Part shown: piece by piece, positions 8,285-26,361 of the stretch
Numbering within the stretch: the first letter of the stretch is position 1
Layout of the letters: every line of letters begins with the position of its first letter
Assembly: GCA_036344075.1 (NCBI GenBank)
Contig: JAYYUJ010000047.1
Span: forward strand, 13,821 to 77,820
Direction: 5' to 3'
Length of the DNA stretch: 64,000 nt
DNA from: Pseudomonadota bacterium
Lineage (GTDB): Bacteria; Pseudomonadota; Gammaproteobacteria; Pseudomonadales; UBA7434
Made by a program: the position numbers and the translations under genes
The notes under the pieces: model-generated
Databases searched by the model: none
What the model was told of the DNA's origin: nothing
Seen by the model: the letters and a program-made list of their open reading frames with translations, nothing else

Positions 8285-8313
8285 TTTAAATTTATATAAA
8301 CAGATAGAGCCCA

Positions 8314-9630
8314 TCATAAAAAAATAAATTTACTCAAAAAAATTATAGTCAAAAAATATGCTCCGGCTGATATATCTTTGGCTTCTCCGGCAAATAACTT
8401 TATAAAAAAATAAGTCAAAAACCCTAATGCAATCCCATTTGCTATAGAGAATGTAAGGGGGATCATAATAATAGTTACTAGTGCGGGTATTATCTCCGTT
8501 GGTTTTGACCACTCTAGATACTCCATGCCCCCTAACATCAATAAAGCAACATAAATAAGTGCGCCAGAGGTCGCATATATTGGGACAGCACCGGCAATTG
8601 GTGAAAAGAAAATTGCAAGTAAGAAGAGGACGCCAACTACAACTGCAGTTAATCCGGTTCGCCCGCCTACCTCAACCCCTGATGAACTTTCAATATAGCT
8701 TGTAACTGGCGAGCATCCAAATAAAGTGCAAATCGCACTTGCACTACTATCTGACTTTAATGCTCGATCCATATTTTTATAAGTGCCATTTTCCAAGAAT
8801 TTTGCTCGGTCTGCGACCCCCAATAATGTTCCTGTTGTATCAAATAAATTCACAAAAAGAAAAGACGAGATAACAGCAATCATGGATATATCAAACGCAG
8901 CTTTAATATCAAGTTTTAGTAATATTGGCGTTATACTCGGTGGTGAAGATAAAAATCCGTTAAATGATATTAAGCCTAATAATTGAGCTATAAATGTAAT
9001 GGTGAGGATGCCAATTATAATCGCTCCCTGTATTTTTTTTATCGAAAGAATTGCAATTAAAATAAAACCTACAGCGGCTAGTAAGGTTTCAGGTTTTCTA
9101 ATGTCCCCTAGGGAGAGATAAGTAGAGGCGTTATCTATAATTAACCCGCCATTTTTTAGACCAATAAATCCAATAAATAGCCCAACACCAATCCCCATTG
9201 ATAATTTCATATTGTGAGGTATGCTTTCAATTATCCACCTTCTTATTGGTGTTATGCTCATTAAGAAAAATAGAATGCCTGCTAAGAAGACAGCTCCTAA
9301 TGCGGTCTCCCATTGGTAGCCCATTTCAATAACGACGGTGTAGGTAAAAAAAGCATTAAGCCCCATTCCAGGAGCTAATCCAACCGGCCAGTTAGCATAT
9401 AAACCCATTACGATGCAGGCTAACGATGCTGCTAAGCATGTCCCTACAAAACTTGCACCATAGTCCATACCACTTGCAGCCATCATTTGTGGATTGATAA
9501 AAATGATATAAGCCATTGTCATAAAGGTGGTAAACCCAGCAATAATCTCCGTTTTAACCGATGTGTTATTTTCTTTTAGCTTAAATTTTTTATTGACTAA
9601 GTCATACATAATGTACTTCTCTTTCTTCAA
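8314..9630 (-). CDS. Adenine/guanine/hypoxanthine permease (AzgA/PurP-type, NCS2-related)
   Basis: Polytopic 438 aa protein. N-terminus FKLKENNTSVKTEIIAGFTTFMTMAYIIFINP is the hallmark of this family. It is the last gene of the minus-strand operon 11597->8314. Confidence 0.85.
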   Translation of the reverse strand: MKKEKYIMYDLVNKKFKLKENNTSVKTEIIAGFTTFMTMAYIIFINPQMMAASGMDYGASFVGTCLAASLACIVMGLYANWPVGLAPGMGLNAFFTYTVVIEMGYQWETALGAVFLAGILFFLMSITPIRRWIIESIPHNMKLSMGIGVGLFIGFIGLKNGGLIIDNASTYLSLGDIRKPETLLAAVGFILIAILSIKKIQGAIIIGILTITFIAQLLGLISFNGFLSSPPSITPILLKLDIKAAFDISMIAVISSFLFVNLFDTTGTLLGVADRAKFLENGTYKNMDRALKSDSSASAICTLFGCSPVTSYIESSSGVEVGGRTGLTAVVVGVLFLLAIFFSPIAGAVPIYATSGALIYVALLMLGGMEYLEWSKPTEIIPALVTIIMIPLTFSIANGIALGFLTYFFIKLFAGEAKDISAGAYFLTIIFLSKFIFL

Positions 9631-9646
9631 AAAAATAAAAATAAAT

Positions 9647-9955
9647 TTATTCGCCTGTGATTGAATCTATAACTCCTTCAATGATGATCAGCTTTGATTT
9701 TGAGTATTTCTTTCTCATTGCATGAATATGGCTTAGTTCCTCTGAGTTCACCCATTTTGATGCTAACTCTTCATTGTCAAAAGCGATTACTACTAATCTT
9801 TCTGGAGCCCATTCACTATCGTGATAGATTATTTTCCCTGCTCTTATCAGATATCTACCCGAATATTTATGGACAGTTGGAGTTATCAATTTGAGATACT
9901 TTTGATATTCTTTTTGGTTTTTTACTTCGTTATCAACTATTACATATGTTGTCAT
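9647..9955 (-). CDS. DUF1330 domain protein
   Basis: 102 aa. The pattern YVIVDNEV...EYQKY...YSGRYLIRAGK...E..W.PERLVVIAF is typical of DUF1330. Confidence 0.7.
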   Translation of the reverse strand: MTTYVIVDNEVKNQKEYQKYLKLITPTVHKYSGRYLIRAGKIIYHDSEWAPERLVVIAFDNEELASKWVNSEELSHIHAMRKKYSKSKLIIIEGVIDSITGE

Positions 9956-9970
9956 ATAAAACCTATAGTT

Positions 9971-11410
9971 TTAAATTTTTCCTGTTTTAAAGAAAGGGTT
10001 ATTTTCTACTGGAGATGGTGAAGAAAAACCTTTTTTTTCAAGAAAATTTGCAACTCTCAAGCATAAGTCTTCCCGCCATGGCGGCGCAATAATTTGAACG
10101 CCAATAGGTAATTGACTCTCTTCATCAATTGTGGGAATTACACATGATGGTAAACCTATCGCTGAAATTGGTTGAGTAAAATAGCCGAGATTCGGCCTGA
10201 GAAGTTCCTCTTGTTGGTTAATAAGAATTTTTTTTTGGCCCATTGCCGGAGCTGTGCAAGGTGTCGCTGGTGCAATTATAATATCAACTTCATTGAATTT
10301 AGTTAGGAATTTTTCCTTGAACCATTTTCTAACTTGCTGTGATCTCACATACCAGCTTCCAGGTAGCATTGCTCCAGCTATAAATCTATCTCTTGTATCT
10401 GGGTCAAAATCGCTAAGATTTTTTTTAAGATGATCTCTATGCAATGAGCTGCCTTCTACATTTGTTATGATGTAGGCCGCCGCTCTTCCTTCGAGTGTTC
10501 CATCTATATTAACGGTGCTATTAACGGAAAGGGATTCACAGACTTTGTCTATAGCTTTTTTAGCCTGTGGAAAATTTTTTGTTGAAAAATAGCCGCCTGC
10601 TTTTGCGATCCTTAAATTTTTAATACCAAGACCTATTTGTGAATGAGTGTCAATGTTTTCTCTGTCAATACAAACATGATCTTTCTCATCAAAGCCTTGA
10701 ATAAGATCAAAACATTGAGATAAGTCAGGTATATTTCTGGCGAAAAGACCTAAATGGTCAAGGCTATCTACGAATGGATAAGTGCCTGTTCTAGGCAGAC
10801 GTCCATATGTAGGTTTTAGTCCGAAAATACCACAAAAGGAAGCCGGAACTCTTATGGAGCCATTTGTATCAGAACCTAATGAAATAGGGGCTATGCCTGC
10901 AGAGGTTGCAGATGCACTTCCAGATGAAGACCCCCCACTCATATAACCTAACTTATGGGGGTTCTGACAATTTCCAAAATGAATATTCTCGCCGGTAAAA
11001 TCATATGCAAACTCACCCATTGAGGTTGCACCAAGTAAAATAGCCCCTTCTCGTTCCATTCTTCTAATTAAAATAGCATCTTGTTTAGCGACTTTATTAT
11101 CATAGTTAATCTTACTACCAGCTAATGTTACATTACCTTTTATATCGAACAGATTTTTTACGGCAAAGGGGACGCCTGCAAGGGGGCCTAATTTACCACC
11201 ATTTTTGATTATTTTATCTATTTGTTGGGCTTTTTTTAAAGCTCTATCATCACAAATAAGAGAGTATGCGTTTAAAGTGGGATTTAAATTTCTTATTCGC
11301 TCTAGGAAGTATGAGGTTAATTCGACTGAGGTGATTTTTTTTTCTTTTATTAATAGAGTTAGTTCACTTATAGTTTTAAAATGTAAGGGTGCCTCAACCA
11401 TTTGTGTCAC
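9971..11410 (-). CDS. Amidase-signature enzyme, AtzE-family-like
   Basis: AS motif GGSSSGSASA...GSDTNGSIRVPA. AtzE-like strings VKNLFDIKGNVTLAGSKI, GEFAYDFTGENIHFG, YPFVDSLDHLG, IIAPATPCTAPAMG and PIGVQIIAPPWREDLCLR. Confidence 0.8.
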   Translation of the reverse strand: MTQMVEAPLHFKTISELTLLIKEKKITSVELTSYFLERIRNLNPTLNAYSLICDDRALKKAQQIDKIIKNGGKLGPLAGVPFAVKNLFDIKGNVTLAGSKINYDNKVAKQDAILIRRMEREGAILLGATSMGEFAYDFTGENIHFGNCQNPHKLGYMSGGSSSGSASATSAGIAPISLGSDTNGSIRVPASFCGIFGLKPTYGRLPRTGTYPFVDSLDHLGLFARNIPDLSQCFDLIQGFDEKDHVCIDRENIDTHSQIGLGIKNLRIAKAGGYFSTKNFPQAKKAIDKVCESLSVNSTVNIDGTLEGRAAAYIITNVEGSSLHRDHLKKNLSDFDPDTRDRFIAGAMLPGSWYVRSQQVRKWFKEKFLTKFNEVDIIIAPATPCTAPAMGQKKILINQQEELLRPNLGYFTQPISAIGLPSCVIPTIDEESQLPIGVQIIAPPWREDLCLRVANFLEKKGFSSPSPVENNPFFKTGKI

Positions 11411-11597
11411 CTGAGTTAAACACTGGAGCTAAATCTATATCATTAGAAGGCAGTGGGGCGTTTTGTAGGATTTTTGCCATTTTGGCTGCATTATTTATAT
11501 GGTGAACTACCCCATCATGATATTCAGGTTTAAAATCGATAGGTATTTCCTTAGACATGATCTCTATCAGTTTTGATGCATCAAGTTCATTATCCAT
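11394..11597 (-). CDS. AtzG-like / DUF4089 small subunit
   Basis: 67 aa, overlapping the amidase start by 17 nt. The pattern I.IDFKPEY..GVV.H...AAKMA..L...PLP...DLAPVF matches the small GatC-like partner found upstream of AtzE-family amidases. Confidence 0.6.
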   Translation of the reverse strand: MDNELDASKLIEIMSKEIPIDFKPEYHDGVVHHINNAAKMAKILQNAPLPSNDIDLAPVFNSGDTNG

Positions 11598-11770: not shown

Positions 11771-12400
11771 ATGAAGAAGCCACATAAAAGCGAGATTCGT
11801 GAAAAAAACTCTCAGATAATTTTAGATGCAGCTGAGCATGAATTTTCAGCACATGGGTATCGTGGGACAAGTGTTCAGATGATAGCAGATCGCTCAGGCC
11901 TTCCGAAAGCTAATTTACACTATTATTATAAAAGTAAGAGTGCTTTGTATGGTGCTGTTTTAGAGAGAATTTTGGTCCTATGGAACACTGGTCTCGATGA
12001 TTTAAATGTTGAGAATGACCCCAGAGAAGTTTTAGAGAAGTTTATTAGGTTAAAAGTTTATTTATCATGCACTCGACCTATGGGTTCAAAATTATTTGCA
12101 ACTGAAATTATTTCAGGTGCACCATATCTGAGCGATTACATTCGTTCTGATATGCGCGATTTTATTGAAGATAAAGTAAAAATTATAGAAAAATGGATCC
12201 AACAAAAAAAAATCCTAGCTGTTGATCCGCTAAATTTAATATTTTTGATTTGGGCTTCGACGCAGCACTATGCTGATTTCAATACTCAAGTATTAATATT
12301 AATGAATAAAGAAAAGTATGAAGAGAGAGATATTAAATTAATAGCAGATAATTTAGTACAAATTATTCTGCGTGGGTGTGGTCTCATACCTGAAAAGTAA
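11771..12400 (+). CDS. TetR-family regulator, RutR-like
   Basis: The HTH region and C-terminal LIFLIWASTQHYADF are nearly identical to E. coli RutR LIFMIWASTQHYADF (from memory). KANLHYYYKSKSALY compares with RutR KTNLLYYFPSKEALY. Confidence 0.85.
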   Translation: MKKPHKSEIREKNSQIILDAAEHEFSAHGYRGTSVQMIADRSGLPKANLHYYYKSKSALYGAVLERILVLWNTGLDDLNVENDPREVLEKFIRLKVYLSCTRPMGSKLFATEIISGAPYLSDYIRSDMRDFIEDKVKIIEKWIQQKKILAVDPLNLIFLIWASTQHYADFNTQVLILMNKEKYEERDIKLIADNLVQIILRGCGLIPEK

Positions 12401-12407: not shown

Positions 12408-13790
12408 TTACTTTTTATATTTCTTTAAAAGTCTTTCAGCTTGATGATTTTGCTTCAATATAAGCTCTTTCTCGTCTAATTGTAGTAATTTACCTTCTGA
12501 AACAACCCATTTTCCTCCAACCATAACTCTATCGGCTCGGTTAGTGCCACTTAAGATCAGTGACGCTAATGGATCATGACTGCCAGAAAATTGTAGTTCA
12601 TCTTGTTTAAAAAGTGCTAGATCAGCTTTTTTTCCCACTGAAATTTCTCCAATATCTTGACGACCGATAATGTCAGCTGACCCTTTTGTAGCCCACTCCA
12701 ATGTTTTTCTATGTGAAATGTTTTCTGCGCCATATTTGAGCCGTTGTAACAATAATGCTTGTCTTACCTCGATAATCATGTTGCTAGCATCATTCGAGGC
12801 GGATCCATCAACACCAATACCTATCCTTGATCCCGCTCGAAGGAGTTCTTCTGTTTTGCAAATTCCTGATGCAAGAATCATATTTGATGTTGGGCAGTGG
12901 CTAATTCCAATTCCCGCTTCACCTAATCGTTTTATTTCAGAATTGTTGAAGTGAATACCATGAGCAAGCCAAGTATTATTATTTAGCCAGCCAACTTTTT
13001 CGAGATAATCAACTGGTTTACAGTCAAATTTTTCAAGACAGAAATTTTCTTCATCGATAGTTTCGGCTAAATGTGTATGAACTTTTACATTGTATTGCTT
13101 TGCAAGTTTAGCGGTTGACACCATTAATTCTTCGGAAACAGAGAAGGGAGAACATGGCGCTAGTGCGATTTGATTAAATGAGCCATCACTTTTATCATGG
13201 TATTTTTTGAGTAAGCGCTCACTATCCTCTAATATATTATCTTCACTCTGGACAACATGATCAGGCGGAAGTCCACCATCTTTTTCACCAAGTGACATCG
13301 ACCCACGACATAGGGTAACTCTTCCTCCCATTTGTTTGCTAGCAGCTATCTGGATATCTATTGCATGACTCATCTCTTCTGAAAAAATATAGTGGTGATC
13401 AACAGAAGTAGTGCAACCTGACAACAATAACTCTGCTATTGCTGTTTGTGTGGAGACGAAAATCATTTCATCATCAAGATTAGCCCATAGTGGATAAGAA
13501 CTTTCAAGCCAAGGGAAAAGTGCTTTATTTTGTGCATCGATGAATGCTCTTGAAAGCGTTTGGTAAAAATGGTGATGTGTATTTATTAATCCTGGTAAAA
13601 CAACGTATTCATTGGCATTAAATGTCTGATCGACTGGCAAACTTGGCGATCTGCCCATAGGAATTAATTCAGCAATCTTATCGCCCTCAATAACAATTCC
13701 TCCATTAGCATCCTGTTCGCTTATCATGAAAATAGATAAAGGTTCTTTAATCCAAAGTCTGTGCCCCTTTTGGCTTAAAGCGTCATTCAT
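12408..13790 (-). CDS. Amidohydrolase-superfamily deaminase, 8-oxoguanine-deaminase-like
   Basis: LWIKEPLSIF...VVLPGLINTHHHFYQTL, VHTHLAE and GVDGSASND. ATG 13790 (MNDALSQ) with AAGGA is preferred over 13859. Confidence 0.7.
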   Translation of the reverse strand: MNDALSQKGHRLWIKEPLSIFMISEQDANGGIVIEGDKIAELIPMGRSPSLPVDQTFNANEYVVLPGLINTHHHFYQTLSRAFIDAQNKALFPWLESSYPLWANLDDEMIFVSTQTAIAELLLSGCTTSVDHHYIFSEEMSHAIDIQIAASKQMGGRVTLCRGSMSLGEKDGGLPPDHVVQSEDNILEDSERLLKKYHDKSDGSFNQIALAPCSPFSVSEELMVSTAKLAKQYNVKVHTHLAETIDEENFCLEKFDCKPVDYLEKVGWLNNNTWLAHGIHFNNSEIKRLGEAGIGISHCPTSNMILASGICKTEELLRAGSRIGIGVDGSASNDASNMIIEVRQALLLQRLKYGAENISHRKTLEWATKGSADIIGRQDIGEISVGKKADLALFKQDELQFSGSHDPLASLILSGTNRADRVMVGGKWVVSEGKLLQLDEKELILKQNHQAERLLKKYKK

Positions 13791-13880
13791 AGCGATCCTT
13801 TTGAATTTAAATGTCAGTATTTGTAATGAAATATAATTTTTAGGGGTATCTATTACCAAAGATACAGCTTTTTTGCTATA

Positions 13881-13896
13881 TTGACCATATGGTCAG
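13881..13896. promoter_or_regulatory. RutR-type operator (TTGACCATATGGTCAG)
   Basis: 15 of 16 positions match the E. coli RutR box TTGACCAnnTGGTCAA. It lies in the 142-bp divergent region between the deaminase-like gene and the GGT-like operon. Confidence 0.6.
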
Positions 13897-13932: not shown

Positions 13933-15507
13933 ATGACATCTCATCTTTGTAAACCTGCTATTACCTCGCCTCACAAGTTAGCATCTGAGGCTGGTGCGGA
14001 CATTTTGCGTGAAGGTGGATCTGCTGTAGAGGCTGTTGTTGCTTGCGCTGCGGCTTTGACCGTAGTTTATCCACATATGAACTCTATTGGCGGTGATAGC
14101 TTTTGGTTGATCCAACCTAAAGGTAAAAAGCCTTTTGCGATAGATGCGAGCGGAAGATCTGCCGCAGCGGCAAATATGAATTTTTATGAGGGATATTCTT
14201 CGATACCTTCTAGGGGCGGCATTTCCTCATTGACCAGCGCTGGAACACTAAGTGGATGGAAGCTAGCCATTGATTTAGACGGAGACGCAAAATTACCCCT
14301 CTCTAGAATATTGTCTGCTGCAATCCAATATGCGAAGAATGGATTTACTGTTAGTAAAAGTCTAGAAAATTCCGCATCAATATTAGATAGTGTTACAGAA
14401 AAAAATAATTATTTTAATCAGCTTTATCAATCGAACGACAAAAGATTGTTTTATGGCGAAAATTTTACTAACAATGATTTGGCAAATACATTTATTCATC
14501 TTTCTAAAAAAGGCTTGAATGATTTTTATCAAGGTGAAATTGCCGAGCAATGTATAAAATCTTTAGTAAAAAACGGCAGCCCTTTAAGTACTGATGATCT
14601 CAAAAGTTATTCAGCTAAAAAAGTTGAACCACTAACTGTTCCTGTTCAGGGAGCTAAACTTTTTAACTTACCGGCACCAACACAAGGTGCAGCTTCACTA
14701 ATGATTTTAGCTATAGTCGATAGATTAAAAAAAGACCTTGAAAGTGAGTCGGATTTGATTCACTTAATAGTGGAGGCTACTAAAAGAGCCTTTATACTTC
14801 GCAATAAAAGTATAACAGATCCATCATTTACAGCTCCGACTTATGAATCAATGACGAGCTCTGAATGCATAATGAATGAGGCAAACAAAGTTAGTCTGTC
14901 CTCAGCGTTAGAATGGCCGTACTCATCAAGGGAGAGTGACACCGTTTGGGTTGGAGCAATCGATGCACAGGGGACACTTGTTAGCTTTATTCAAAGTATT
15001 TATTGGGAGTTTGGTTCAGGAATTGCTATTCCAGAGTTAGGTTTTGTTTGGAATAATCGTGGAACGAGTTTTAGTCTCGATAAAGATAATATCAATCATT
15101 TAAGGCCATCTGCAAAACCATTTCATACGCTAAATCCAGCTGTGGCTATTTTTGATGATGGCAGGAGATTAGCTTACGGATGTATGGGTGGTGAAGGGCA
15201 GCCTCAAACTCAAGCCGCAATATTTAGTCGATATGCATGGTTATCTGAGCCTTTAGAAACTGCTATTTCAAGGGGGAGGTGGCTATTAGGTCGGACATGG
15301 GGAAAGGAATCAAATAACCTAAAAATTGAGGCTGATATATTCGATGAAGTTAATGAGAGCCTCACTAACCTAGGCCATGATATTGAATGCGTGCCGAAAC
15401 GTTCGGAAATGATGGGTCATGCTGGGGCTATTTTAAGTGAAAGTTCCGGTGATTCATTTTCTGTGACGGATCCAAGGAGTGATGGTGCAGCTATAGTAAT
15501 TGATTAG
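13933..15507 (+). CDS. Gamma-glutamyltransferase-family Ntn hydrolase, no signal peptide (candidate HpxW-like oxamate amidohydrolase)
   Basis: 524 aa with a GGT-family N-terminus (SPHKLASEAGADILREGGSAVEAVVA...). The putative autoprocessing Thr is in SDTVWVGAID. The purine-catabolic context supports the HpxW-like reading. Confidence 0.75.
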   Translation: MTSHLCKPAITSPHKLASEAGADILREGGSAVEAVVACAAALTVVYPHMNSIGGDSFWLIQPKGKKPFAIDASGRSAAAANMNFYEGYSSIPSRGGISSLTSAGTLSGWKLAIDLDGDAKLPLSRILSAAIQYAKNGFTVSKSLENSASILDSVTEKNNYFNQLYQSNDKRLFYGENFTNNDLANTFIHLSKKGLNDFYQGEIAEQCIKSLVKNGSPLSTDDLKSYSAKKVEPLTVPVQGAKLFNLPAPTQGAASLMILAIVDRLKKDLESESDLIHLIVEATKRAFILRNKSITDPSFTAPTYESMTSSECIMNEANKVSLSSALEWPYSSRESDTVWVGAIDAQGTLVSFIQSIYWEFGSGIAIPELGFVWNNRGTSFSLDKDNINHLRPSAKPFHTLNPAVAIFDDGRRLAYGCMGGEGQPQTQAAIFSRYAWLSEPLETAISRGRWLLGRTWGKESNNLKIEADIFDEVNESLTNLGHDIECVPKRSEMMGHAGAILSESSGDSFSVTDPRSDGAAIVID

Positions 15508-15524: not shown

Positions 15525-16343
15525 TTGATAGATTTTTTTACCGTTTTACCTGTTGTTCTAGTTCTCATTTTCACTGGCATATTTGCTGGTGTTTTAGCGG
15601 GCTTATTGGGCGTAGGTGGCGGTATCGTTATTGTCCCTGTTTTATACTTTATATTTCAGGGCTTTGGGGTCTCCTCTGAGTCATCAATGGCGATTGCCGT
15701 GGCAACATCATTGGCCGTCATTGTGCCGACTTCGATATCCTCAATAAGATCTCATTTTAAAGCAGGAAACATTGACACTATGATCATGCGTCAATGGACA
15801 CCTTTTATATTTTTGTTTGCATTACTTGGAAGCTTATTTTCTAAGCAAATTGACGCCAAATTGATAATATCCTTATTTGGCATCATTGCTTGTTTTGTTA
15901 GTATAAATATGATTTTTAAAAATTCTTTTACGTTCACTTTTAGGCAACTACCTAGTCGCTTTATACAAACCATGATGGCATCAGTAGTAGGGTTCCTTTC
16001 TGTAATGATAGGTATCGGTGGTGGTACTTTGGGAGTTCCTATTTTAAGTTCGTTAAATTTAGCGACGCACAAAGCTGTTGGGACAGCTGCATGCTTTGGA
16101 TTATTTATTGCTTTGCCAGGCGCTTTAATGGCTCTTTTTTTGTCTGATACACCAAATGATGCGCTTATAGGACATGTGGGTCTTGTAAGTTTGCCAGCGT
16201 TGTTTCTGATAGCGCCATTGACTGTTATTTTCGCACCTATAGGTGTCAAATTAGGAAAAATTCTGAACCAAAATCAGTTGAAAAAGGTATTTGCAGTAAC
16301 CTTATTTTTTACTGGTTTGAGGATGTTGTATAAGGCTTATTAA
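15525..16343 (+). CDS. TauE/SafE (DUF81) family anion transporter
   Basis: 272 aa, about 8 TM segments, duplicated GLLGVGGG / IGIGGGTLGVP motifs, TTG start. Confidence 0.8.
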   Translation: MIDFFTVLPVVLVLIFTGIFAGVLAGLLGVGGGIVIVPVLYFIFQGFGVSSESSMAIAVATSLAVIVPTSISSIRSHFKAGNIDTMIMRQWTPFIFLFALLGSLFSKQIDAKLIISLFGIIACFVSINMIFKNSFTFTFRQLPSRFIQTMMASVVGFLSVMIGIGGGTLGVPILSSLNLATHKAVGTAACFGLFIALPGALMALFLSDTPNDALIGHVGLVSLPALFLIAPLTVIFAPIGVKLGKILNQNQLKKVFAVTLFFTGLRMLYKAY

Positions 16344-16374: not shown

Positions 16375-17631
16375 ATGTCTAAATCTAAAGATGACTCAAA
16401 TTTTTTTGGCGCCTTAAGTCCACCGCCTAGATTATTAATGGGTCCTGGCCCGATTAATGTCGACCCACGCGTACTTCAAGCCATGTCGACCCAATTGATT
16501 GGCCAATACGATCCTGTTATGACGAATTATATGAATGAGACAATGTCACTCTACAGGCAAGTATTTTATACCCAGAATAAGTGGACCTTACTCATTGATG
16601 GGACCTCGAGAGCAGGTATCGAAGCTATCATGGTATCTTTACTAAAGCCTGGCGATAAAGTTTTAGTACCCATAATGGGCAGGTTTGGTTTTTTGTTAGC
16701 CGAAATCGCAAAACGGGTGGGTGCTAAGGTAGAGATTATAGAGTGCCCTTGGGGAAGGGTTTTTTCCCCTGATGAAATAGAAGATGCTATTAAAAGAGTG
16801 AAGCCTAAGCTTCTGGCTACAGTCCAAGGGGACACCTCAACAACAATGCTTCAGCCTCTCTCAGACTTGGGTGAAATTTGTCGAAGACATGATGTTTTAT
16901 TTTTTTGTGATGCAACTGCATCTATAGGGGGAAATTTACTAAAGACTGATGAGTGGAAGCTCGATGCCGTTTCTGTTGGGCTACAAAAATGTTTAAGTGG
17001 CCCCTCCGGCTCGTCACCGATCACTATAAATGATAGGTTTGTTGAATTTATCCAGCCAAGGAAGCATATTGAGGCGGGTATTAAATCAAGTCATCATGAG
17101 GACGGCAACCAGCCATTTATTAATTCTAACTATTTCGATCTTCCAATGATCTTAGATTATTGGGGAGAGGAAAGACTCAATCACCACACCGAGGCCACAA
17201 CAATGCTTTATTGTGCCAGAGAGTGTGCAAGACTCATACTTAATGAGGGCATTGACAATGCTATACAAAGACACATAGATCATGGGACTGCTATGGTTAA
17301 AGGACTACAGGCAATGGGTTTAGAGTTGTTCGGTGATTTAAGTAACAAGATGTCAAATATAGTTGGTGTCTACATACCCAAGGGTATTGATGGTGAAGCT
17401 GTTCGGTCACAAATGCTTATTGATTTTGATATTGAGATTGGAACTTCTTTCGGGCCACTTCATGGAAAGATATGGCGAATTGGAACTATGGGTTATAACG
17501 CAAGGAAGTCAGCCGTATTATCAACTTTATCAGCTCTGGAGGTAACTTTACAAAACCAAGGTTTTAAATTGCCAAAGACTCAAGGACCATTGGAAGCACT
17601 TAATTACTACAAACAGCTTGGTACTAGCTGA
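16375..17631 (+). CDS. Class V aminotransferase, PucG-like (S)-ureidoglycine-glyoxylate aminotransferase candidate
   Basis: LLMGPGPINVDPRVLQAM, and the PLP lysine context VGLQKCLSGPSG. It sits immediately upstream of allantoate amidohydrolase. Confidence 0.7.
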   Translation: MSKSKDDSNFFGALSPPPRLLMGPGPINVDPRVLQAMSTQLIGQYDPVMTNYMNETMSLYRQVFYTQNKWTLLIDGTSRAGIEAIMVSLLKPGDKVLVPIMGRFGFLLAEIAKRVGAKVEIIECPWGRVFSPDEIEDAIKRVKPKLLATVQGDTSTTMLQPLSDLGEICRRHDVLFFCDATASIGGNLLKTDEWKLDAVSVGLQKCLSGPSGSSPITINDRFVEFIQPRKHIEAGIKSSHHEDGNQPFINSNYFDLPMILDYWGEERLNHHTEATTMLYCARECARLILNEGIDNAIQRHIDHGTAMVKGLQAMGLELFGDLSNKMSNIVGVYIPKGIDGEAVRSQMLIDFDIEIGTSFGPLHGKIWRIGTMGYNARKSAVLSTLSALEVTLQNQGFKLPKTQGPLEALNYYKQLGTS

Positions 17632-17636: not shown

Positions 17637-18887
17637 ATGGACTTGAGATTTTCAACACAGAGGGTAATTGATCGTTGTCATGAACTGGCAAAAATTTCAG
17701 AACAACCTGAGTATATTTTGAGACGTTACCTAACTGAAGCCCATAAAAATGCTAACGCATTAGTAGCGAAATGGATGCAAGAATCGGGCATGACGGTTTG
17801 GCAAGATCAGGTTGGTAATCAGTGGGGTAGATATGATGGAACTGATCCAAAATTACCTGCGCTAGTGATTGGCTCACATCTCGATACTGTACCTGATGCT
17901 GGTCAGTATGATGGAATTATTGGTGTCATGTTGGGGATAGAGATAGTTGAAAGATTGTCTCTTAAAAACAAAAGATTACCATTTCCAATCGAGATTGTTG
18001 GTTTTGGTGATGAGGAGGGAGTGAGATTTGGAACAGCCTTTCTTGGTTCTCATGGTGTGACAGGGAGCTGGTGCGAAGATTGGCTCCAAATTAAGGATAA
18101 GGAAGGGAAAAGTTTATATCAATCAATGTTAGATTTTGGCTTAGATCCACTGGATAAACATCTTTCAATCCGCCCTCCGAGTTCGATATTAGGTTATTGG
18201 GAGGTTCATATCGAACAGGGCCCAAAGTTAGAGAGTTTAGGATTACCTTTAGGTGTTGTTACAGGTATTGCCGGTGCTCGTAGAGCAACATTAATGATTA
18301 AAGGTAAAGCTGGCCATGCTGGTACGACACCAATGAACCTTAGAAAAGATGCTCTTTGCGTGGCTTCTGAGATTATTTTGGCAGTCGAAGAGCTTGCTAA
18401 AAATTGCACTTACGAGGCAGTTGCCACGACTGGACAAGTTTTTGTAAATCCAGGAGCGACTAACGTTATTTCAGGTTCAGCTGCACTTTCCTTAGATGTA
18501 AGGGCTGTTAAAGATGAGTTTCGTGACGATTTAATTTTACGTATTTCCAATGAGGTTGATTTGATAGCTTCTAGAAGAAATGTTCAGATTCAATGGCAAT
18601 GGGATCATGAAGCGAAATCTGTTATGTGTGATGATACCTATCAGCAATTATTTTCTAAGGCTATGGAAAATAGTGGCCTAGAAACAGAGTCTCTTTTTTC
18701 AGGAGCTGGCCATGATGCTATGGCTATGGCAACTATTTGTCCTGTTGGGATGTTATTTATAAGAAGTCCAGATGGATTGAGTCACCATCCTGATGAATCA
18801 ATTATTTTTAGCGATGTGACTAAAGCAATTCAAGTTACTGAGTCAGCCTTAACTTCATATTCTGAAATCTTTGGAGAGTCTCAATGA
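17637..18887 (+). CDS. allC: Allantoate amidohydrolase (M20 family)
   Basis: GSHLDTVPDAGQYDG, GFGDEEG and GAGHDAM. An N-carbamoyl-amino-acid hydrolase is the alternative, and the context favours allantoate. Confidence 0.75.
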   Translation: MDLRFSTQRVIDRCHELAKISEQPEYILRRYLTEAHKNANALVAKWMQESGMTVWQDQVGNQWGRYDGTDPKLPALVIGSHLDTVPDAGQYDGIIGVMLGIEIVERLSLKNKRLPFPIEIVGFGDEEGVRFGTAFLGSHGVTGSWCEDWLQIKDKEGKSLYQSMLDFGLDPLDKHLSIRPPSSILGYWEVHIEQGPKLESLGLPLGVVTGIAGARRATLMIKGKAGHAGTTPMNLRKDALCVASEIILAVEELAKNCTYEAVATTGQVFVNPGATNVISGSAALSLDVRAVKDEFRDDLILRISNEVDLIASRRNVQIQWQWDHEAKSVMCDDTYQQLFSKAMENSGLETESLFSGAGHDAMAMATICPVGMLFIRSPDGLSHHPDESIIFSDVTKAIQVTESALTSYSEIFGESQ

Positions 18888-19213
18888 GTAAAATAACTAG
18901 TCATATTCTTGATACAACATGCGGCAAACCTGCAGAGGGGATTGTCGTTGAGTTATATTTAGAAAATGACTTAATTTCACATGATATATCTAATAATGAT
19001 GGAAGGGTTACATCACTCTTAAGCCATGAAAAGTCTTTAAGTCCTGGGAATTACAAACTTAAATTTTATACATCAGTTTATTTTAAAGCTAAGGGCGTTG
19101 AAAGTTTTTATCCCATAGTTGAGATTAATTTTAATGTTGAAGAAATTGACCAGCATTATCATGTGCCACTGCTTCTAGCAAGTCATGGTTACACCACATA
19201 CAGGGGATCATAA
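18884..19213 (+). CDS. uraH: 5-hydroxyisourate hydrolase
   Basis: 109 aa transthyretin-like protein with HILDTTCGKPAEG and the diagnostic C-terminal YTTYRGS. ATGA overlap with allC. Confidence 0.9.
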   Translation: MSKITSHILDTTCGKPAEGIVVELYLENDLISHDISNNDGRVTSLLSHEKSLSPGNYKLKFYTSVYFKAKGVESFYPIVEINFNVEEIDQHYHVPLLLASHGYTTYRGS

Positions 19214-19224
19214 TTCCAAATAAT

Positions 19225-20541
19225 ATGGATGCTTACAGAGCTGAAATTATCTATTGCACAAATGATCCAAGTAAATTTGGCGAGAGCGCAATTTGCCATT
19301 TTGAGGATGGTCTTTTGGTGGTTAACTCATCTGGTGAGATTGTAGCATGCGGTGAAGCAAAAACATTGCTTAAAGAATGGGGGGGTAATTGTTCTTATAA
19401 TGAGTATAAAAATCATCTCATTGTTCCTGGTTTCATAGATTCGCACATTCATTTTCCACAAACTGAAATGCTAGCTGCACACGGTGAGCAGTTATTATCA
19501 TGGTTGGAGAATTATACTTATCCAGTCGAAGAAAATTTCTGTAATAAATCATACAGCCTAAAGATTGCAAATGTCTTTCTTACAGAGCTCTTAAAAAATG
19601 GTACTACTTCAGCAGTTGTTTTTGGCAGTGTTCACAAGGAGTCAGTAGATGCCCTTTTTGAGCTTTCTTATGAGAAAAATATGCGAATAGTTGCTGGCAA
19701 AGCTCTTATGGATCGGAATGTCCCGCTCGGAGTTAGTGAAAATACTTTAGATGGATTTATTAAATCAAAAGAATTAATTGACCAGTGGCATAATAAAGGT
19801 CGTTTGTCATATGCAGTTACTCCTAGATTTGCCGCTTCATCTTCATATCAGCAGCTTGAGGGATGCAAAAAATTATTAAATGATTATCCAGACTTATATT
19901 TACAAACACATTTATCAGAAAATCATGAAGAGATTGACTTTGTAAAAAAAACTTATCCAACATTTCCAAATTATCTTAGTATCTATGATGAGTTTGACTT
20001 CCTTAGCCGGCCTTCGATTTTTGCACACTGTATACACTTAGAAGAAAAAGAGTGGGATCTTTTATCGAATACAAAAGCTGTTATAAGCCACTGTCCGACA
20101 TCGAATTTATTTTTAGGTTCTGGATTGTTTGATATGAAAAAAAGCCGTAACTTTAATATTCCAGTTACAATAGGAACTGACATAGGAGCTGGAACAAGTT
20201 TTTCTATGATGCAAACTTTCTCTGAGGCCTATAAGATTCAACAATTACAGGGTACATCTTTAAACGGTTTTGACGGCTTATATTTGATGACGTTAGCAGG
20301 TGCGAAGGCCATTAATTTAGATCACAGGATAGGTACTTTGGAAGCTGGAACTGAAGCAGACTTTGTCATTTTGAATTATAACTCAACCCCTTATATGGAA
20401 TTTAGAAATAGCAAATGCGATACAATCCATGACAGGCTTTTTTCTCTTTTGATGCTTGGTGATGATAGGGCCGTTTCTGAGACATATATTATGGGCAAGA
20501 AAAAATTTGATCAGTCAAATTGTAATGATACATATTTATAG
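19225..20541 (+). CDS. guaD: Guanine deaminase
   Basis: PGFIDSHIHFPQTEML, QTHLSEN, HCIHL and GTDIGAG. Confidence 0.85.
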   Translation: MDAYRAEIIYCTNDPSKFGESAICHFEDGLLVVNSSGEIVACGEAKTLLKEWGGNCSYNEYKNHLIVPGFIDSHIHFPQTEMLAAHGEQLLSWLENYTYPVEENFCNKSYSLKIANVFLTELLKNGTTSAVVFGSVHKESVDALFELSYEKNMRIVAGKALMDRNVPLGVSENTLDGFIKSKELIDQWHNKGRLSYAVTPRFAASSSYQQLEGCKKLLNDYPDLYLQTHLSENHEEIDFVKKTYPTFPNYLSIYDEFDFLSRPSIFAHCIHLEEKEWDLLSNTKAVISHCPTSNLFLGSGLFDMKKSRNFNIPVTIGTDIGAGTSFSMMQTFSEAYKIQQLQGTSLNGFDGLYLMTLAGAKAINLDHRIGTLEAGTEADFVILNYNSTPYMEFRNSKCDTIHDRLFSLLMLGDDRAVSETYIMGKKKFDQSNCNDTYL

Positions 20542-20553
20542 GTATTAGAACTT

Positions 20554-21738
20554 ATGCAATCGGATTGGCTAGAAATAATAAATTTAATTTTAAGATACTT
20601 TCACGTTGTCGCTGGTATAGCATGGATCGGTGCGTCATTTTATTTCATATGGCTGGATAATAATCTTGAGGAGCCTGCTAGATTAAAAACTGATATGGGT
20701 ATAAAGGGAGATTTATGGGCGATTCATGGAGGCGGCATTTATGAGGTCTCAAAATATAAATTAGCTCCAAAAGAAATGCCAAGTAAACTGCATTGGTTTA
20801 AATGGGAAGCTTATAGTACATGGATTAGTGGTTTTCTCTTATTAACATTAATATATTACATCAATGCTGATAGCTACTTAATTGATAAAGAAAAAATAAG
20901 CATCACTCAGCCAGTATCAATATTAATAAGTCTAGGAAGTCTTGTTTTTGGTTGGTTGATCTATAACGGATTATGTCGCTCCAAGATTATTAATAATGGA
21001 ATATTTTTTGCTTCAGTCTGTCTGTTAATTATCGGATTATTTAGTTTATTTCTGGATCAAATATTTTCAGATAGAGGCGCTTTTATCCACATAGGGGCTA
21101 TGATAGGAACATGCATGGCAGCAAATGTATGGAGAGTCATCATACCATCTCAAAAGTACCTAGTTAGCTCTATCAATGACGGAACTGAACCAGACCCCAA
21201 GATAAGCGAGCATGCCAAATTAAGGTCAACGCATAATAATTATGTGACATTGCCTTTGTTGTTTTTAATGATCAGCCATCATTACTCTTTCATTTATAGC
21301 CATGAGTTTAGTTGGTTGGCATTGGTTGGTATAGTTTTAATTGGCATGCTGATTAGGCATTACTTTAATTTGCGACATAAAGGAGTTAACAAGCCAGTTT
21401 TCTTTTTGAGCGGTTTTCTCTCTTTTTTAATATTAACCTTCTATTTAATGCCATCACCAAATAGGAATGTGGTTTCGTCAGCTCAGATATCTGACGGACA
21501 AGTAATGTCAATCATAAATATGCATTGCACCAGTTGTCATAGTCGGCGGCCAACAGATGAGGTATTTGCAGTTGCACCCGGCGGTATCTATCTTAATACT
21601 AGAGAAGATTTAATCCGTTGGGAAGATAAAATAATTTCCAGTGCTGTTAAAAGTAATTGGATGCCACTTGCGAACAAAACAAAAATGACTGAAGAGGAAA
21701 GAAAGGTTATATATAGCTGGCTAAAACAACAGAACTAA
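20554..21738 (+). CDS. puuD: Membrane cytochrome c urate hydroxylase PuuD
   Basis: N-terminal FHVVAGIAWIGASFYFIWLDN, a multi-TM body, and a C-terminal CTSCH heme-c motif. Confidence 0.8.
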   Translation: MQSDWLEIINLILRYFHVVAGIAWIGASFYFIWLDNNLEEPARLKTDMGIKGDLWAIHGGGIYEVSKYKLAPKEMPSKLHWFKWEAYSTWISGFLLLTLIYYINADSYLIDKEKISITQPVSILISLGSLVFGWLIYNGLCRSKIINNGIFFASVCLLIIGLFSLFLDQIFSDRGAFIHIGAMIGTCMAANVWRVIIPSQKYLVSSINDGTEPDPKISEHAKLRSTHNNYVTLPLLFLMISHHYSFIYSHEFSWLALVGIVLIGMLIRHYFNLRHKGVNKPVFFLSGFLSFLILTFYLMPSPNRNVVSSAQISDGQVMSIINMHCTSCHSRRPTDEVFAVAPGGIYLNTREDLIRWEDKIISSAVKSNWMPLANKTKMTEEERKVIYSWLKQQN

Positions 21739-22666: not shown

Positions 22667-23164
22667 TTAGCCTTGGTCAAAAAAAATATTAATTCTATGG
22701 TTAGTGATCTTATTTTGTTGAATAGCAGCATTCACTAATTCTTGCTCAGTGGTATTCAATAATCTCTTTTTTAAAATTTCAGCCATTTGATTTGCTGTTT
22801 TTCCTGTGGCAAAAACGATGAATATAAATCCATTCTTTAATTCATAGGTCTTATTCATTTCAAAAAGCTGTTTGATGACTGACTCGTCCGCATCGATAAT
22901 TTGACCTTGTTCTTTCCTGGCTTTCGAATACTTGTTTTTTATAGAAGAAATGTCTCCGATTTTGGCATGGCTTGAAAAAGCCTCCATTAGATCTTCCTCT
23001 TCAGATCGGCTCCAAACTTCTTTAGAGTCATTTAACATTTGTTCTATATCAATAAAAGGCCTTTTATTGATCATTGATTTTACCCATTTCTTTGATGAGC
23101 AAAATTCTAGGAGCACATTTTTGGCATCTTCGTTGTTTAATAGATTGAACTCTTCAAGGGTCAT
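22667..23164 (-). CDS. uraD: OHCU decarboxylase
   Basis: 165 aa. The N-terminus (FNLLNNEDAKNVLLEFCSSKKWV) and HAKIGD match the family's HPxIG region. ATGA overlap with xdhC. Confidence 0.8.
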   Translation of the reverse strand: MTLEEFNLLNNEDAKNVLLEFCSSKKWVKSMINKRPFIDIEQMLNDSKEVWSRSEEEDLMEAFSSHAKIGDISSIKNKYSKARKEQGQIIDADESVIKQLFEMNKTYELKNGFIFIVFATGKTANQMAEILKKRLLNTTEQELVNAAIQQNKITNHRINIFFDQG

Positions 23165-24012
23165 CTTAAAGGTATCACTTCATGACTTAGGTTTAATTCT
23201 TTTTTTAAGGTTTTCCAATCTAAAAGATTTGAATCCTTTCGATTTCCGGTGAGGGATAGTAGATATGCAGCAACAGAAATAGCAATTTCTTTTGGCTTTT
23301 TGCTCTTTATGCCTTCAATTCCAATGGGGCATTGAAAACGATTTACATCATCAGGATGCAAGCCATCATTTTTTAATCGGGCGCGGAATTTTCTAGATTT
23401 ATTACTTGAGCCAATTAAACCGACATAGGACCATCTCCAATCATCGAGTAGTTTTTTCATTAATAGGTAATCTAATTCGTGATCATGTGTTAAAATTAAA
23501 ACATAACTTCCTTCATCTAGATTGTTTATTTCATTATCTGGCTTTTCAATGTAGTCTGGCATTCTTTTACTACTAACTGCCGATGAGAACGATTTCCTCG
23601 AATCAAACCATGATATTTCAAAGTCCAGGTCTCCTATAATTTGTACTAATTCATGGGCTATATGCCCGCCACCAAAGATAGCAAGAGGAATTTTGTTAAA
23701 AATAAATGTTTCAATTAACACAGTCATGGTACCACCACAACATTGTTTGCACGATGAAGACAGATAAAATTCTTTTATCTCTTGCGAAGCGCAATTATTG
23801 TTAAGCAATTCTCGAGCGCGATTAATAATTTGAAACTCTAATTTCCCACCACCTATTGAGTCATAAGTATTCTCAGTTGTGATTACCATCTTTGAACCTG
23901 ACCCTCTAGGTGATGATCCTGATGACGATATTACCGTCGCAAGTGCATGCGGATGATTAAGCTTTGTAAGTTTTGAAATTACATCACTCCAAGGTGTCGA
24001 TAGCATAGTCAT
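23161..24012 (-). CDS. xdhC: Xanthine dehydrogenase accessory protein XdhC
   Basis: 283 aa with GGGHIAHELVQI in a Rossmann-like segment, positioned directly after xdhB. Confidence 0.8.
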   Translation of the reverse strand: MTMLSTPWSDVISKLTKLNHPHALATVISSSGSSPRGSGSKMVITTENTYDSIGGGKLEFQIINRARELLNNNCASQEIKEFYLSSSCKQCCGGTMTVLIETFIFNKIPLAIFGGGHIAHELVQIIGDLDFEISWFDSRKSFSSAVSSKRMPDYIEKPDNEINNLDEGSYVLILTHDHELDYLLMKKLLDDWRWSYVGLIGSSNKSRKFRARLKNDGLHPDDVNRFQCPIGIEGIKSKKPKEIAISVAAYLLSLTGNRKDSNLLDWKTLKKELNLSHEVIPLR

Positions 24013-24027
24013 TTTTTTAATTCACCT

Positions 24028-26361
24028 CTATGAAGTCATTTTATTTTTTAAAGCGTCTTCAGCGGCAAAAAAAACTGATTCATTAGTCGCTGGTGCGGAG
24101 AGGGATGGACTGTATTTATAGTTTGAAAGGCTTGAGCATGCGTCTCTTATTGCACACCAAGTTGATATGGCAAGCATAAAAGGCGGTTCACCGACTGCTT
24201 TAGACTTATGTATTGTTTCTTCAGTGTTATCTTGATTATAAAGTTCAACATTGAAAATGGATGGAGTATCAAAAGCAGTGGGTATTTTATAGGTTGCAGG
24301 ACCTTGACAATTGATCTTTCCTTTTTCATCCCAATTTAAATCTTCTGTGGTCAACCAGCCCATCCCTTGTATGAACCCTCCTTCTATTTGGCCTATGTCA
24401 ATACCGGGATTTAATGATTTTCCTGTATCATGGAGAATATCAACTTGATTCACCCTGTATTGCCCTGTAGTGATATCAATTGTAACTTCAGAGCAAGCCG
24501 CGCCATTAGCAAAATAATAAAATGGTCTTCCCTTGCCTGTATCAGGGTCAAACCAGATCTTAGGAGTTTTGTAGTATCCTGTTGAGCTTAGTTGAATTCT
24601 GTTTAGATATGCTAAATTTATAAAATCTTCAAAAGGTATTTTCTCCTTCCCAGCGATAATATGATTGTTTTTGAAATAAATTGAAGATTCATCGATGTTA
24701 AAGTAACTCACAGCAAAATTAACTAATTTTTTCTTTATCTGATTACAAGCATCTAATGCAGCCATGCCATTCATATCTGATCCTGAAGAGGCAGCTGTTG
24801 GTGATGTGTTCGGAACCTTATCTGTCCTTGTTGCTGAAGATTTAACTCGTTCAATAGAAACCCCAAAAGCGTTTGCGACAACTTGTTGGACCTTGATAAA
24901 TAAACCTTGGCCCATTTCTGTACCGCCATGGTTTAACAAGATACTACCATCGGTATAAATATGAACTAACGCCCCAGCTTGATTTAAATGTTTTGACGTA
25001 AAAGAGATCCCAAATTTCACGGGTGTCAGTGCAATACCTTTCTTGAGGTATTCATTAGTTTGGTTAAATTCTATAATTTCACGACGCCTCAGCCAATAAT
25101 CTGATTGATCCTCTAATTTTTCAATGAGCGGCAGCAAAATATTCTCATCAACTTCTTGACCATAGGGTGTAGTATCGCCTGGCTTGTATAGGTTTTTTTT
25201 CCTTACAATTAATGGATCAAGTCCTATCTTTCGGGCTATATCATCTATCATTGATTCGCATGCAAGCATGCCTTGAGGCCCACCGAATCCTCTAAATGCT
25301 GTATTTGATGCTTTGTTTGTTTTGCAAAAATGGCCTTTTATTTGTACATTTGGATATTGGTATGCATTATCAGCATGAAACATGGCTCTTTGAACAATTC
25401 CAATTGAAAGATCCATAGAGCATCCACAATCAGCATATAAGTCAATATCAACTGCTTCTATTTTACCGTTTCCGTCGAAACCAACTTTGTATGAAGAAAG
25501 GAATGGATGACGTTTGCCTGTCTGTATAAAATCATCCCTACGATTCATTCGATGCTTAACAGGCCGGTTGCATCTCATTGCAAAAAGTGCCGCAATACAA
25601 GCGGTAATCGCTGCTTGGGATTCTTTTCCCCCAAAGGCCCCGCCCATACGCCTCACTTCGGTTTGAATACTGTGTAATGGAAGGTCAAGAACTTCTGAGA
25701 CAAGTTTTTGTATTTCACTAGGGTGTTGGCTTGAGCTATGTATAGTTATGCTATCTTCACTGGGAACAGCAAGCGCCACTTGGCTTTCAAGGTAGAAATG
25801 TTCTTGGCTAGGTATTTGAAGTTCAGACTCAAGAATGTTTGCTGATTTTTTAATTGAATTTTTAGCGTCACCAGATTTAAAAATTTTAGGTGGCATGAGA
25901 TACGAGTTTTTCTTTTTGGATTCAGCTATGTCAATTATTGGTTCCAGATTTTCATATTCCACAACTGCTAAGGCAACGGCTTTATGGGCTGCCTTGTAAG
26001 ACAAAGCAGCAACAGCAAATATTATTTGCCCATAAAAATTCACTGTTTGATCAGCTAGGAGAGGATCACCATCAAAAACTGGTGCTATATCATTTAGACC
26101 GGGTATATCTGAACTAATGATTACGTCGATAACGTCCTTGGCATTTCTTACTTTTGATAAATCGATTTTTTTAATTTTTGCATGTGCTTGGGTTGAAAAA
26201 CCAGTCGCCACATGAAGTAAACCTTCTTGCTCAGATATATCATCAACGTATTTAGCGCAGCCACTGACATGCTTAATCGCAGAGTCATGTATGATAGCTT
26301 CACCGATTATGGATGAGTTATTATCCAACGTGCCTTTAGTGTGATGATTAATTTTTCGCAT
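24028..26361 (-). CDS. xdhB: Xanthine dehydrogenase molybdopterin-binding subunit
   Basis: 777 aa with RRMGGAFGGKE, FRGFGGPQG, GGTEMGQG and KAVGEPP. Confidence 0.95.
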   Translation of the reverse strand: MRKINHHTKGTLDNNSSIIGEAIIHDSAIKHVSGCAKYVDDISEQEGLLHVATGFSTQAHAKIKKIDLSKVRNAKDVIDVIISSDIPGLNDIAPVFDGDPLLADQTVNFYGQIIFAVAALSYKAAHKAVALAVVEYENLEPIIDIAESKKKNSYLMPPKIFKSGDAKNSIKKSANILESELQIPSQEHFYLESQVALAVPSEDSITIHSSSQHPSEIQKLVSEVLDLPLHSIQTEVRRMGGAFGGKESQAAITACIAALFAMRCNRPVKHRMNRRDDFIQTGKRHPFLSSYKVGFDGNGKIEAVDIDLYADCGCSMDLSIGIVQRAMFHADNAYQYPNVQIKGHFCKTNKASNTAFRGFGGPQGMLACESMIDDIARKIGLDPLIVRKKNLYKPGDTTPYGQEVDENILLPLIEKLEDQSDYWLRRREIIEFNQTNEYLKKGIALTPVKFGISFTSKHLNQAGALVHIYTDGSILLNHGGTEMGQGLFIKVQQVVANAFGVSIERVKSSATRTDKVPNTSPTAASSGSDMNGMAALDACNQIKKKLVNFAVSYFNIDESSIYFKNNHIIAGKEKIPFEDFINLAYLNRIQLSSTGYYKTPKIWFDPDTGKGRPFYYFANGAACSEVTIDITTGQYRVNQVDILHDTGKSLNPGIDIGQIEGGFIQGMGWLTTEDLNWDEKGKINCQGPATYKIPTAFDTPSIFNVELYNQDNTEETIHKSKAVGEPPFMLAISTWCAIRDACSSLSNYKYSPSLSAPATNESVFFAAEDALKNKMTS

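Follow-up and report, generated by a model that had tools for sequence, protein, structure and literature searches.

A predicted oxalurate amidohydrolase of the AtzG/AtzE type in a gammaproteobacterial purine island

The closest described counterparts of the genes discussed here come from Pseudomonas sp. ADP and from Klebsiella. In Pseudomonas sp. ADP, AtzE deamidates 1-carboxybiuret to 1,3-dicarboxyurea, and AtzG is a non-catalytic protein that forms an obligate heterotetramer with AtzE, which is insoluble without it (PMC6219798). The Klebsiella homologues of atzG, atzE and atzH are named hpxX, hpxY and hpxZ and are annotated for oxalurate, a compound that E. coli also handles to yield oxamate (PMC11326118). 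The E. coli proteins AllFGH and the carbamate kinase AllK are unrelated to these amidases and work by phosphorolytic transfer to carbamoyl phosphate, with a gain of ATP. Here we describe a 64-kb stretch of DNA (the window; contig JAYYUJ010000047.1, positions 13,821 to 77,820) from a bacterium of the Pseudomonadales, in which four adjacent genes encode an AtzG-like protein of 67 aa, an AtzE-family amidase of 479 aa, a DUF1330 protein and a purine permease. It is probable that the 67-aa and 479-aa proteins form a heteromeric amidase of the AtzG/AtzE type that serves an HPX-type pathway from purines to oxalate as its oxalurate amidohydrolase, with the substrate deduced from the gene context.

The preliminary description of this locus took the native role of AtzEG homologues outside triazine catabolism to be unassigned, which was mistaken. 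The Klebsiella oxytoca M5al record (GenBank EU884423) annotates hpxX, hpxY and hpxZ as "putative oxalurate amidohydrolase / oxalurate utilization", an annotation that is reproduced in the supplementary data of PMC3560190, and an independent earlier assignment of the homologous Klebsiella genes was also made by Esquirol et al. (PMC6219798). The NCBIfam equivalog models HpxX (NF033624) and HpxZ (NF033625) are each titled "oxalurate catabolism protein", and AtzH of pADP-1 passes the latter. A 2025 paper that cites Huynh & Stewart 2023 calls hpxY "oxalurate amidohydrolase" in its main text and, in contradiction, "oxamate carbamoyltransferase" in the legend of its Fig. 7 (PMC12625717), and the naming of hpxY is still unsettled. 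Because the idea is already present in databases and in a review, no missing enzyme is discovered here: the mechanism proposed for the locus is reasonable and arrives again at the HpxXY(Z) prediction. What is new here is a distinct marine gammaproteobacterial clade of the enzyme, the loss of HpxZ, and a recurrent DUF1330 subfamily. The recurrence of the same AtzG/AtzE-type solution in a separate, environmentally abundant marine lineage strengthens the oxalurate assignment, and this lineage offers a second, simpler protein set, without HpxZ, for testing the oxalurate step.

The amidase and its small subunit

The four open reading frames (ORFs) are all present on the minus strand at 8314-11597, as had been described:

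11394..11597, minus strand: AtzG-like small subunit, 67 aa, counterpart of HpxX/AtzG (Pfam PF13318)
9971..11410, minus strand: AtzE-family Ser-cisSer-Lys amidase, 479 aa, predicted catalytic subunit of an oxalurate amidohydrolase (NF006631, TIGR02715)
9647..9955, minus strand: DUF1330 protein, 102 aa, of a purine-island-linked subfamily, candidate substitute for HpxZ/AtzH (PF07045)
8314..9630, minus strand: AZG/AzgA-type NCS2 purine-base permease, 438 aa, with a likely start at ATG 9609 (PF00860)

The overlap of 17 nt reported earlier for the first two genes holds if the amidase starts at GTG 11410 and shrinks to 8 nt if an alternative in-frame ATG at 11401 is used. The remaining gaps measure 15 nt and 16-37 nt, and this close spacing makes it plausible that the four genes form a single operon and are co-transcribed. 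A scan of 8000-12500 for promoter and terminator consensus sites gave no sites above those in shuffled sequences and was uninformative on the operon boundaries. The permease, which had been called an adenine/guanine/hypoxanthine-type transporter, matches the Pfam family Xan_ur_permease, and its top relatives in the PDB are the Arabidopsis adenine/guanine permeases AZG1 and AZG2 (E = 2e-67).

Searches with the Pfam and NCBIfam hidden Markov models bore out the AtzG-like, AtzE-family and DUF1330 assignments. The 479-aa protein matches Pfam Amidase (E = 3e-94) and passes both the NCBIfam model "AtzE family amidohydrolase" NF006631 (615.6 bits, cutoff 461), as does Klebsiella HpxY, and TIGR02715 (579.8 bits, cutoff 425.75). 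Its top PDB match is AtzE in the AtzE/AtzG complex 6C62 (6c62_A, E = 6e-118), with GatA structures next. In an alignment of 22 sequences, K85, the GGSSSG motif (G159-G160-S161-S162) and S185 in LGSDTNGSIR are invariant and line up with AtzE in 6C62. Judged from these residues, the protein is an enzyme of the amidase-signature class with a predicted triad of Lys85, cis-Ser161 and Ser185. The small ORF, on whose family membership the preliminary description had made its reading depend, matches the Pfam AtzG-like family PF13318 above the cutoff (E = 4.9e-11, 43.3 bits, cutoff 24), and its sole meaningful PDB match is AtzG (6c62_C, E = 0.005). An AtzG-like ORF lies immediately 5' of the amidase gene in essentially all of the 86 related loci that were collected; the two-subunit architecture proposed for the overlapping genes is therefore a trait of the family. 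By analogy with AtzG, the amidase would require its small subunit.

The window genes share with AtzE-AtzG of Pseudomonas sp. ADP (atzDGEHF, PDB 6C62) the family models, the two-gene arrangement and the catalytic motifs, and 1-carboxybiuret and the predicted substrate oxalurate are close chemical analogues, each with a terminal ureido amide beside a carbonyl. Unlike the ADP genes, which belong to a plasmid-borne cyanuric acid operon, the window genes are chromosomal and lie in a purine island, and AtzD, AtzF and AtzH are absent from the scanned ORFs of the 64-kb window, as had been claimed. In a neighbor-joining tree of 93 family members, the window amidase falls in a gammaproteobacterial clade with Agarilytica, Microbulbifer, Halioxenophilus and marine metagenome contigs, apart from the pair formed by HpxY and AtzE, which are 54% identical to each other. 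It shares ~60% identity with its closest named relatives and 96% with one metagenomic protein.

As in the hpxWXYZ operon of Klebsiella, the AtzE-family amidase follows an overlapping AtzG-like gene of 60-70 aa, stands beside counterparts of HpxJ (66% identity), HpxK (46%) and HpxW (42%), all within 7 kb, and is predicted to catalyse the same step, from oxalurate to oxamate. Apart from HpxZ, every gene of the Klebsiella HPX set has its match in the island. The island differs in that a DUF1330 gene and an AZG-type permease gene follow the amidase, the hpxW-like gene stands outside the amidase operon, the regulator is a RutR-like TetR protein where Klebsiella has the RpiR-type HpxU, and a TauE exporter is encoded where Klebsiella has ABC transporter genes. 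In one Klebsiella record (CP125156.1, L087 in our collection) hpxX, an "AtzE family amidohydrolase" gene and hpxZ are consecutive and lie near hpxU, an ABC transporter and an aminotransferase. PLSDB lists this 5.37-Mb record as a plasmid; in its hpxW region there is only a 411-aa ORF with no listed coding sequence, and hpxW may be disrupted in that strain. In Cellvibrionaceae bacterium AOL6 (L002, 9938-12727) the AtzE-like ORF extends to 929 aa, which suggests either that it is fused to a downstream domain or that a stop codon was missed.

Oxalurate as the predicted substrate

Family scans of the neighbouring ORFs determined that the purine island around the operon is real and extends over ~12.4-29 kb. 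The class-V aminotransferase of the island has 3NNK as its top PDB match (E = 3e-188), also matches 3ISL (E = 3e-140) and is 66% identical to Klebsiella HpxJ, so that the PucG-like formation of oxalurate claimed in the preliminary description is upheld by an HpxJ orthologue. The candidate oxamate amidohydrolase named there, a GGT-family protein, has Klebsiella HpxW as its best PDB match (5HFT, chains A/B, E = 8e-69 and 4e-63) and is 42% identical to the Klebsiella hpxW ORF. With an HpxJ orthologue and an HpxW-like enzyme, the island is therefore predicted to make oxalurate and to use up oxamate. Pfam scans of the larger ORFs of the window found no AllFGH (FdrA/DUF1116/DUF2877), carbamate kinase or urease, and no ureidoglycine aminohydrolase or ureidoglycolate lyase families; the claim that the oxamate carbamoyltransferase (OXTCase) route is missing thus stands for the window ORFs scanned. 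Since HpxJ-like and HpxW-like enzymes are encoded and no transcarbamylase route was found in the window, the amidase would close the gap between oxalurate and oxamate. This proposal of the preliminary description fits the gene context and the synteny described below; as an idea it had already been put forward for Klebsiella HpxXY.

In the proposed pathway, purine bases would be taken up through the AZG-type permease of the operon, a second NCS2 permease and TonB-dependent receptors, and deaminases together with XdhABC would convert them to urate. PuuD, hydroxyisourate (HIU) hydrolase and OHCU decarboxylase would then yield (S)-allantoin, PuuE would form allantoate, AllC/HpxK would form ureidoglycine, and the HpxJ orthologue would produce oxalurate. 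The AtzGE-like enzyme is predicted to cleave the terminal ureido amide of oxalurate to give NH3 and N-carboxy-oxamate, which would lose CO2 to become oxamate, and the HpxW-like Ntn hydrolase would convert oxamate to oxalate and NH3. The features of the island are as follows:

11771..12400, plus strand: divergent RutR-like TetR regulator (TetR_N and TetR_C_3)
12408..13859, minus strand: 8-oxoguanine deaminase (NF006055, 663.7 bits, cutoff 532)
13881..13896: RutR-box-like palindrome TTGACCATATGGTCAG in the divergent promoter of the 8-oxoguanine deaminase and hpxW-like genes
13933..15507, plus strand: HpxW-like Ntn-hydrolase of the GGT family, predicted oxamate amidohydrolase (PF01019)
15525..16343, plus strand: TauE/SafE-family anion exporter (PF01925)
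16375..17631, plus strand: HpxJ/PucG orthologue, ureidoglycine-glyoxylate aminotransferase, which forms oxalurate (PDB 3NNK, 3ISL)
17637..18887, plus strand: allantoate amidohydrolase AllC/HpxK (NF006775, 543.6 bits, cutoff 479)
18884..21738, plus strand: HIU hydrolase, guanine deaminase and PuuD-type urate oxidase (TIGR02962, NF006679; Urate_ox_N PF06181, E = 3e-121)
21764-22663: DIOX_N/2OG-Fe(II) oxygenase within the island
22667..27853, minus strand: OHCU decarboxylase, XdhC, XdhB and XdhA (NCBIfam equivalogs)
27963..27978: second RutR-box-like palindrome TTGACCAACTAGTCAA in the divergent xdhA/puuE promoter
28142..29053, plus strand: PuuE-type allantoinase (TIGR03212, 489.8 bits, cutoff 424.6)

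OHCU decarboxylase, XdhC and XdhB pass the cutoffs of their models, and XdhA falls slightly under that of TIGR02963 (433.3 bits, cutoff 467). The AllC/HpxK protein is the one that is 46% identical to Klebsiella HpxK. Beyond puuE lie genes for TonB-dependent receptors, the second NCS2 permease and a NUP-family protein.

A survey of the neighbourhoods of AtzEG homologues, as the preliminary description had proposed, found linkage to hpxJ and allC in Agarilytica, Microbulbifer and metagenomic relatives. In Agarilytica rhodophyticola (L081) the cluster allC-adenosine deaminase-hpxJ-tauE-ggt is divergent from puuE-cupin5-DUF1330-atzG-atzE, and in Microbulbifer harenosus (L091) a RutR-like regulator accompanies allC-Adeaminase-hpxJ-ggt, divergent from puuE-DUF1330-atzG-atzE. 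Two large metagenomic contigs (L089 and L090) show the same pattern, and two further metagenomic relatives (L083 and L085) keep only the linkage of puuE with atzG-atzE. The 96%-identical relative (L094) carries ggt, 8-oxoguanine deaminase, TetR and atzG-atzE-DUF1330-permease exactly as in the window, and Acidithiobacillus has xdhC-atzG-atzE-atzH-x-ggt. Synteny with hpxJ, hpxW, allC and puuE is conserved in at least six relatives.

Several observations weigh against an oxalurate amidohydrolase. The literature search turned up no biochemical proof of oxalurate hydrolysis by any HpxXY/AtzEG homologue, and the oxalurate assignment rests on context everywhere, being a prediction even in Klebsiella. 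The window amidase is, by sequence identity, no closer to Klebsiella HpxY (42% over the full length) than to AtzE of pADP-1 (44%), and orthology to HpxY is not claimable. The 67-aa protein has no match even at E <= 10 to the HpxX model NF033624, on which Klebsiella HpxX itself reaches 101.7 bits, and BLASTP does not align it with Klebsiella HpxX, so that it is AtzG-like by Pfam only. As the sequence link to HpxX and HpxY is weak, the functional inference rests on context, which is strong. Neither jackhmmer nor tblastn found HpxZ/AtzH in the window or in the loci of its clade. Within a conserved region, the amidase loop at residues 130-142 reads MGEFAYDFTGEN in the window, where HpxY has MDAYAYGFTTEN and AtzE has MDEFAYGFTTEN. 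Acidithiobacillus and the alphaproteobacterial relatives share the MGEFAYDFTGEN form with the window clade, and the loop may mark two specificity groups; the locus scan behind the set of related loci was biased by it towards the MGEFAYDFTGEN group.

The neighbourhoods themselves are not uniform. In Haliea sp. E17 and Halioxenophilus, atzGE of the same clade ends an operon with genes for a FAD-binding protein, an amidohydrolase and an isochorismatase-family hydrolase. In a set of 80 loci, most of them alphaproteobacterial, the genes found most often beside atzGE encode an Opp-type ABC transporter (49 loci), a second amidase-signature amidase (39), AtzH, an isochorismatase-family hydrolase (21) and a GntR regulator (20), and the alphaproteobacterial atzG-atzE-atzH loci (L003-L080) look like a different, uncharacterised ureide pathway. 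Only ~10 AtzE-family loci have 8-oxoguanine deaminase and/or Xdh. The AtzE family clearly serves more than one pathway. Additionally, the view of the genome is limited to 64 kb, and the absence of AllFGH holds for the window ORFs that were scanned.

This view of 64 kb bears on a first alternative, in which the amidase acts on another purine-derived amide or ureide (ureidoglycolate, ureidoglycine, allantoate or oxamate) and oxalurate is handled from outside the window, for example by AllFGH. Amidase-signature specificity is not readable from sequence, and neither GGT nor HpxJ lies within 10 kb in some atzGE loci that have Xdh and 8-oxoguanine deaminase. Allantoate and oxamate, on the other side, already have dedicated enzymes in the island (AllC and the HpxW-like protein), and the gene-for-gene match to the Klebsiella set, HpxZ aside, counts against this alternative, as does the fact that Klebsiella pneumoniae carries the HPX set and has no genes for OXTCase or carbamate kinase (PMC11326118). 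We consider it rather unlikely.

A second alternative, that the amidase keeps an AtzE-like specificity (for 1-carboxybiuret, an intermediate of a triuret/biuret pathway, or allophanate) and scavenges nitrogen from oxidative by-products of urate outside the main line from allantoin to oxalate, is quite improbable. The slightly higher identity to AtzE than to HpxY speaks for it, as do the isochorismatase-family hydrolase in the Haliea and Halioxenophilus operons and the frequency of isochorismatase-family and second-amidase genes in the alphaproteobacterial loci. The isochorismatase family is that of the biuret and triuret hydrolases. Against this, no isochorismatase-family hydrolase, AtzD, AtzF or AtzH occurs among the scanned window ORFs, no enzyme in the island would connect the oxalurate made by the HpxJ orthologue with what the HpxW-like enzyme uses, and the synteny in at least six relatives joins atzGE to hpxJ, hpxW, allC and puuE. 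A GatC/GatA-type tRNA-dependent amidotransferase remnant unrelated to purine catabolism, which the GatA structures in second place in the PDB and the supposed derivation of AtzEG from GatCA (PMC6219798) would bring to mind, is effectively refuted by the score against the GatA equivalog TIGR00132 (271.9 bits, cutoff 481.1), the absence of GatB from the window and the conserved embedding in a purine island.

DUF1330 and the missing HpxZ

HpxZ and AtzH belong to DUF3225 and have an NTF2 fold. Of the 80 genome loci, 52 contain ORFs of this kind, in most cases right after the amidase gene. The 102-aa protein of the window is a match to DUF1330 (PF07045, E = 3.6e-22), and DUF1330 is present in 10 of the 12 loci of the window clade; outside the clade, the 80 genome-scan loci contain none. 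This complementary distribution of DUF1330 and HpxZ is compatible with a functional replacement.

A search with the single DUF1330 sequence gave 4 matches and was repeated with an alignment as the query. The DUF1330 proteins of the clade form a coherent subfamily that is 40-60% identical to the window protein. D8, T25, H78 and M80 are among the residues common to the subfamily, and they are lacking in a non-island paralogue found on the same contig in one case. The position of the gene varies, always within HPX-type islands in the clade loci: it comes after atzE in the window and L094, before atzG in L081, L089, L090 and L091, and after puuE in L083 and L085. In Haliea it overlaps the adenosine deaminase gene and is divergent from the RutR-like regulator, ~25 kb from atzGE. 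In a further lineage it is convergent with allC-hpxJ-ggt, and that DUF1330 protein is listed in 173 collection blocks. A distant DUF1330 protein with 38% identity has an unrelated gene context.

DUF1330 is a conserved accessory of this type of island. The most economical guess for its role is that it would handle the labile carboxylated product of the amidase in place of the missing HpxZ/AtzH. We tentatively suggest that the subfamily could be an enzyme dedicated to HPX-type purine breakdown in marine gammaproteobacteria, a non-homologous replacement for HpxZ/AtzH that processes the labile N-carboxylated product of AtzGE, for example by a controlled decarboxylation to oxamate. Two findings weigh against replacement, namely that DUF1330 is not strictly adjacent to atzGE and that neither DUF1330 nor HpxZ lies within 10 kb of atzGE in three loci (L001, L002 and L027). 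The two PDB relatives of DUF1330 are both uncharacterised structural-genomics entries, and an AlphaFold2 model made from a 5-sequence alignment had a mean pLDDT of 57.8, too poor for a fold search. The papers that mention DUF1330, with one mention each, show no sign in their titles and abstracts of addressing its function. The recurrent gene in these islands, placed by atzGE, puuE, allC or adenosine deaminase, provides a concrete hypothesis for a family without a reported function in the literature searched, and a replacement of HpxZ, if true, would be the first function for any DUF1330 protein.

A Cupin_5 (PF06172) gene lies between puuE and DUF1330 in L081, L085 and L090, and in L089 it is found a short way downstream of atzE, on the other strand. 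Cupin_5 was rejected as an obligatory substitute for HpxZ, being absent from the window, L083, L091 and L094.

Regulation and surroundings of the island

The regulator divergent from the operon (11771-12400) combines TetR_N with a C-terminal domain of the YcdC/RutR type (PF08362) and scores under the cutoffs of both RutR equivalog models (173.4 bits against 368, and 165 bits against 230). "RutR-like", the term used in the preliminary description, is therefore the proper wording. The same type of regulator is found in the islands of L091, L093 and L094. The window was scanned for RutR boxes with the E. coli RutR consensus TTGACCAnnTGGTCAA. Two matches were found at <=2 mismatches, with one mismatch each, where 0.24 were expected, and these palindromes (13881 and 27963) sit in the two divergent promoter regions of the island. 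The two boxes suggest that the RutR-like protein may control the purine island. The intergenic region between atzG and the regulator has no RutR box within 4 mismatches, and direct RutR-like control of the four-gene operon is therefore unsupported.

A TauE/SafE gene also stands between the hpxW-like and hpxJ-like genes in Agarilytica (L081), L089, L090 and Haliea (L093), and this exporter could carry out the end product oxalate, or oxamate. Amidohydrolases that resemble 8-oxoguanine deaminase (47-57% identical) are encoded at or near AtzE in eight loci from distant taxa (L016, L026, L027, L044, L049, L051, L057 and L071), often together with Xdh. We know of no purine-catabolic role for the DIOX_N/2OG-Fe(II) oxygenase. 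Homologues of it with 26-32% identity are encoded near AtzE in six alpha- and gammaproteobacterial loci, and in Halioxenophilus one adjoins DUF1330.

The purine island is bracketed by a weak LuxE-like acyl-protein synthetase (6797-8284, plus strand) and a LuxC-type acyl-CoA reductase (34445-35893, plus strand). The G+C content is 0.34-0.40 across 8-44 kb, below that of the flanks at 0.42-0.48, and a former luxE/luxC pair may have been split by insertion of the island.

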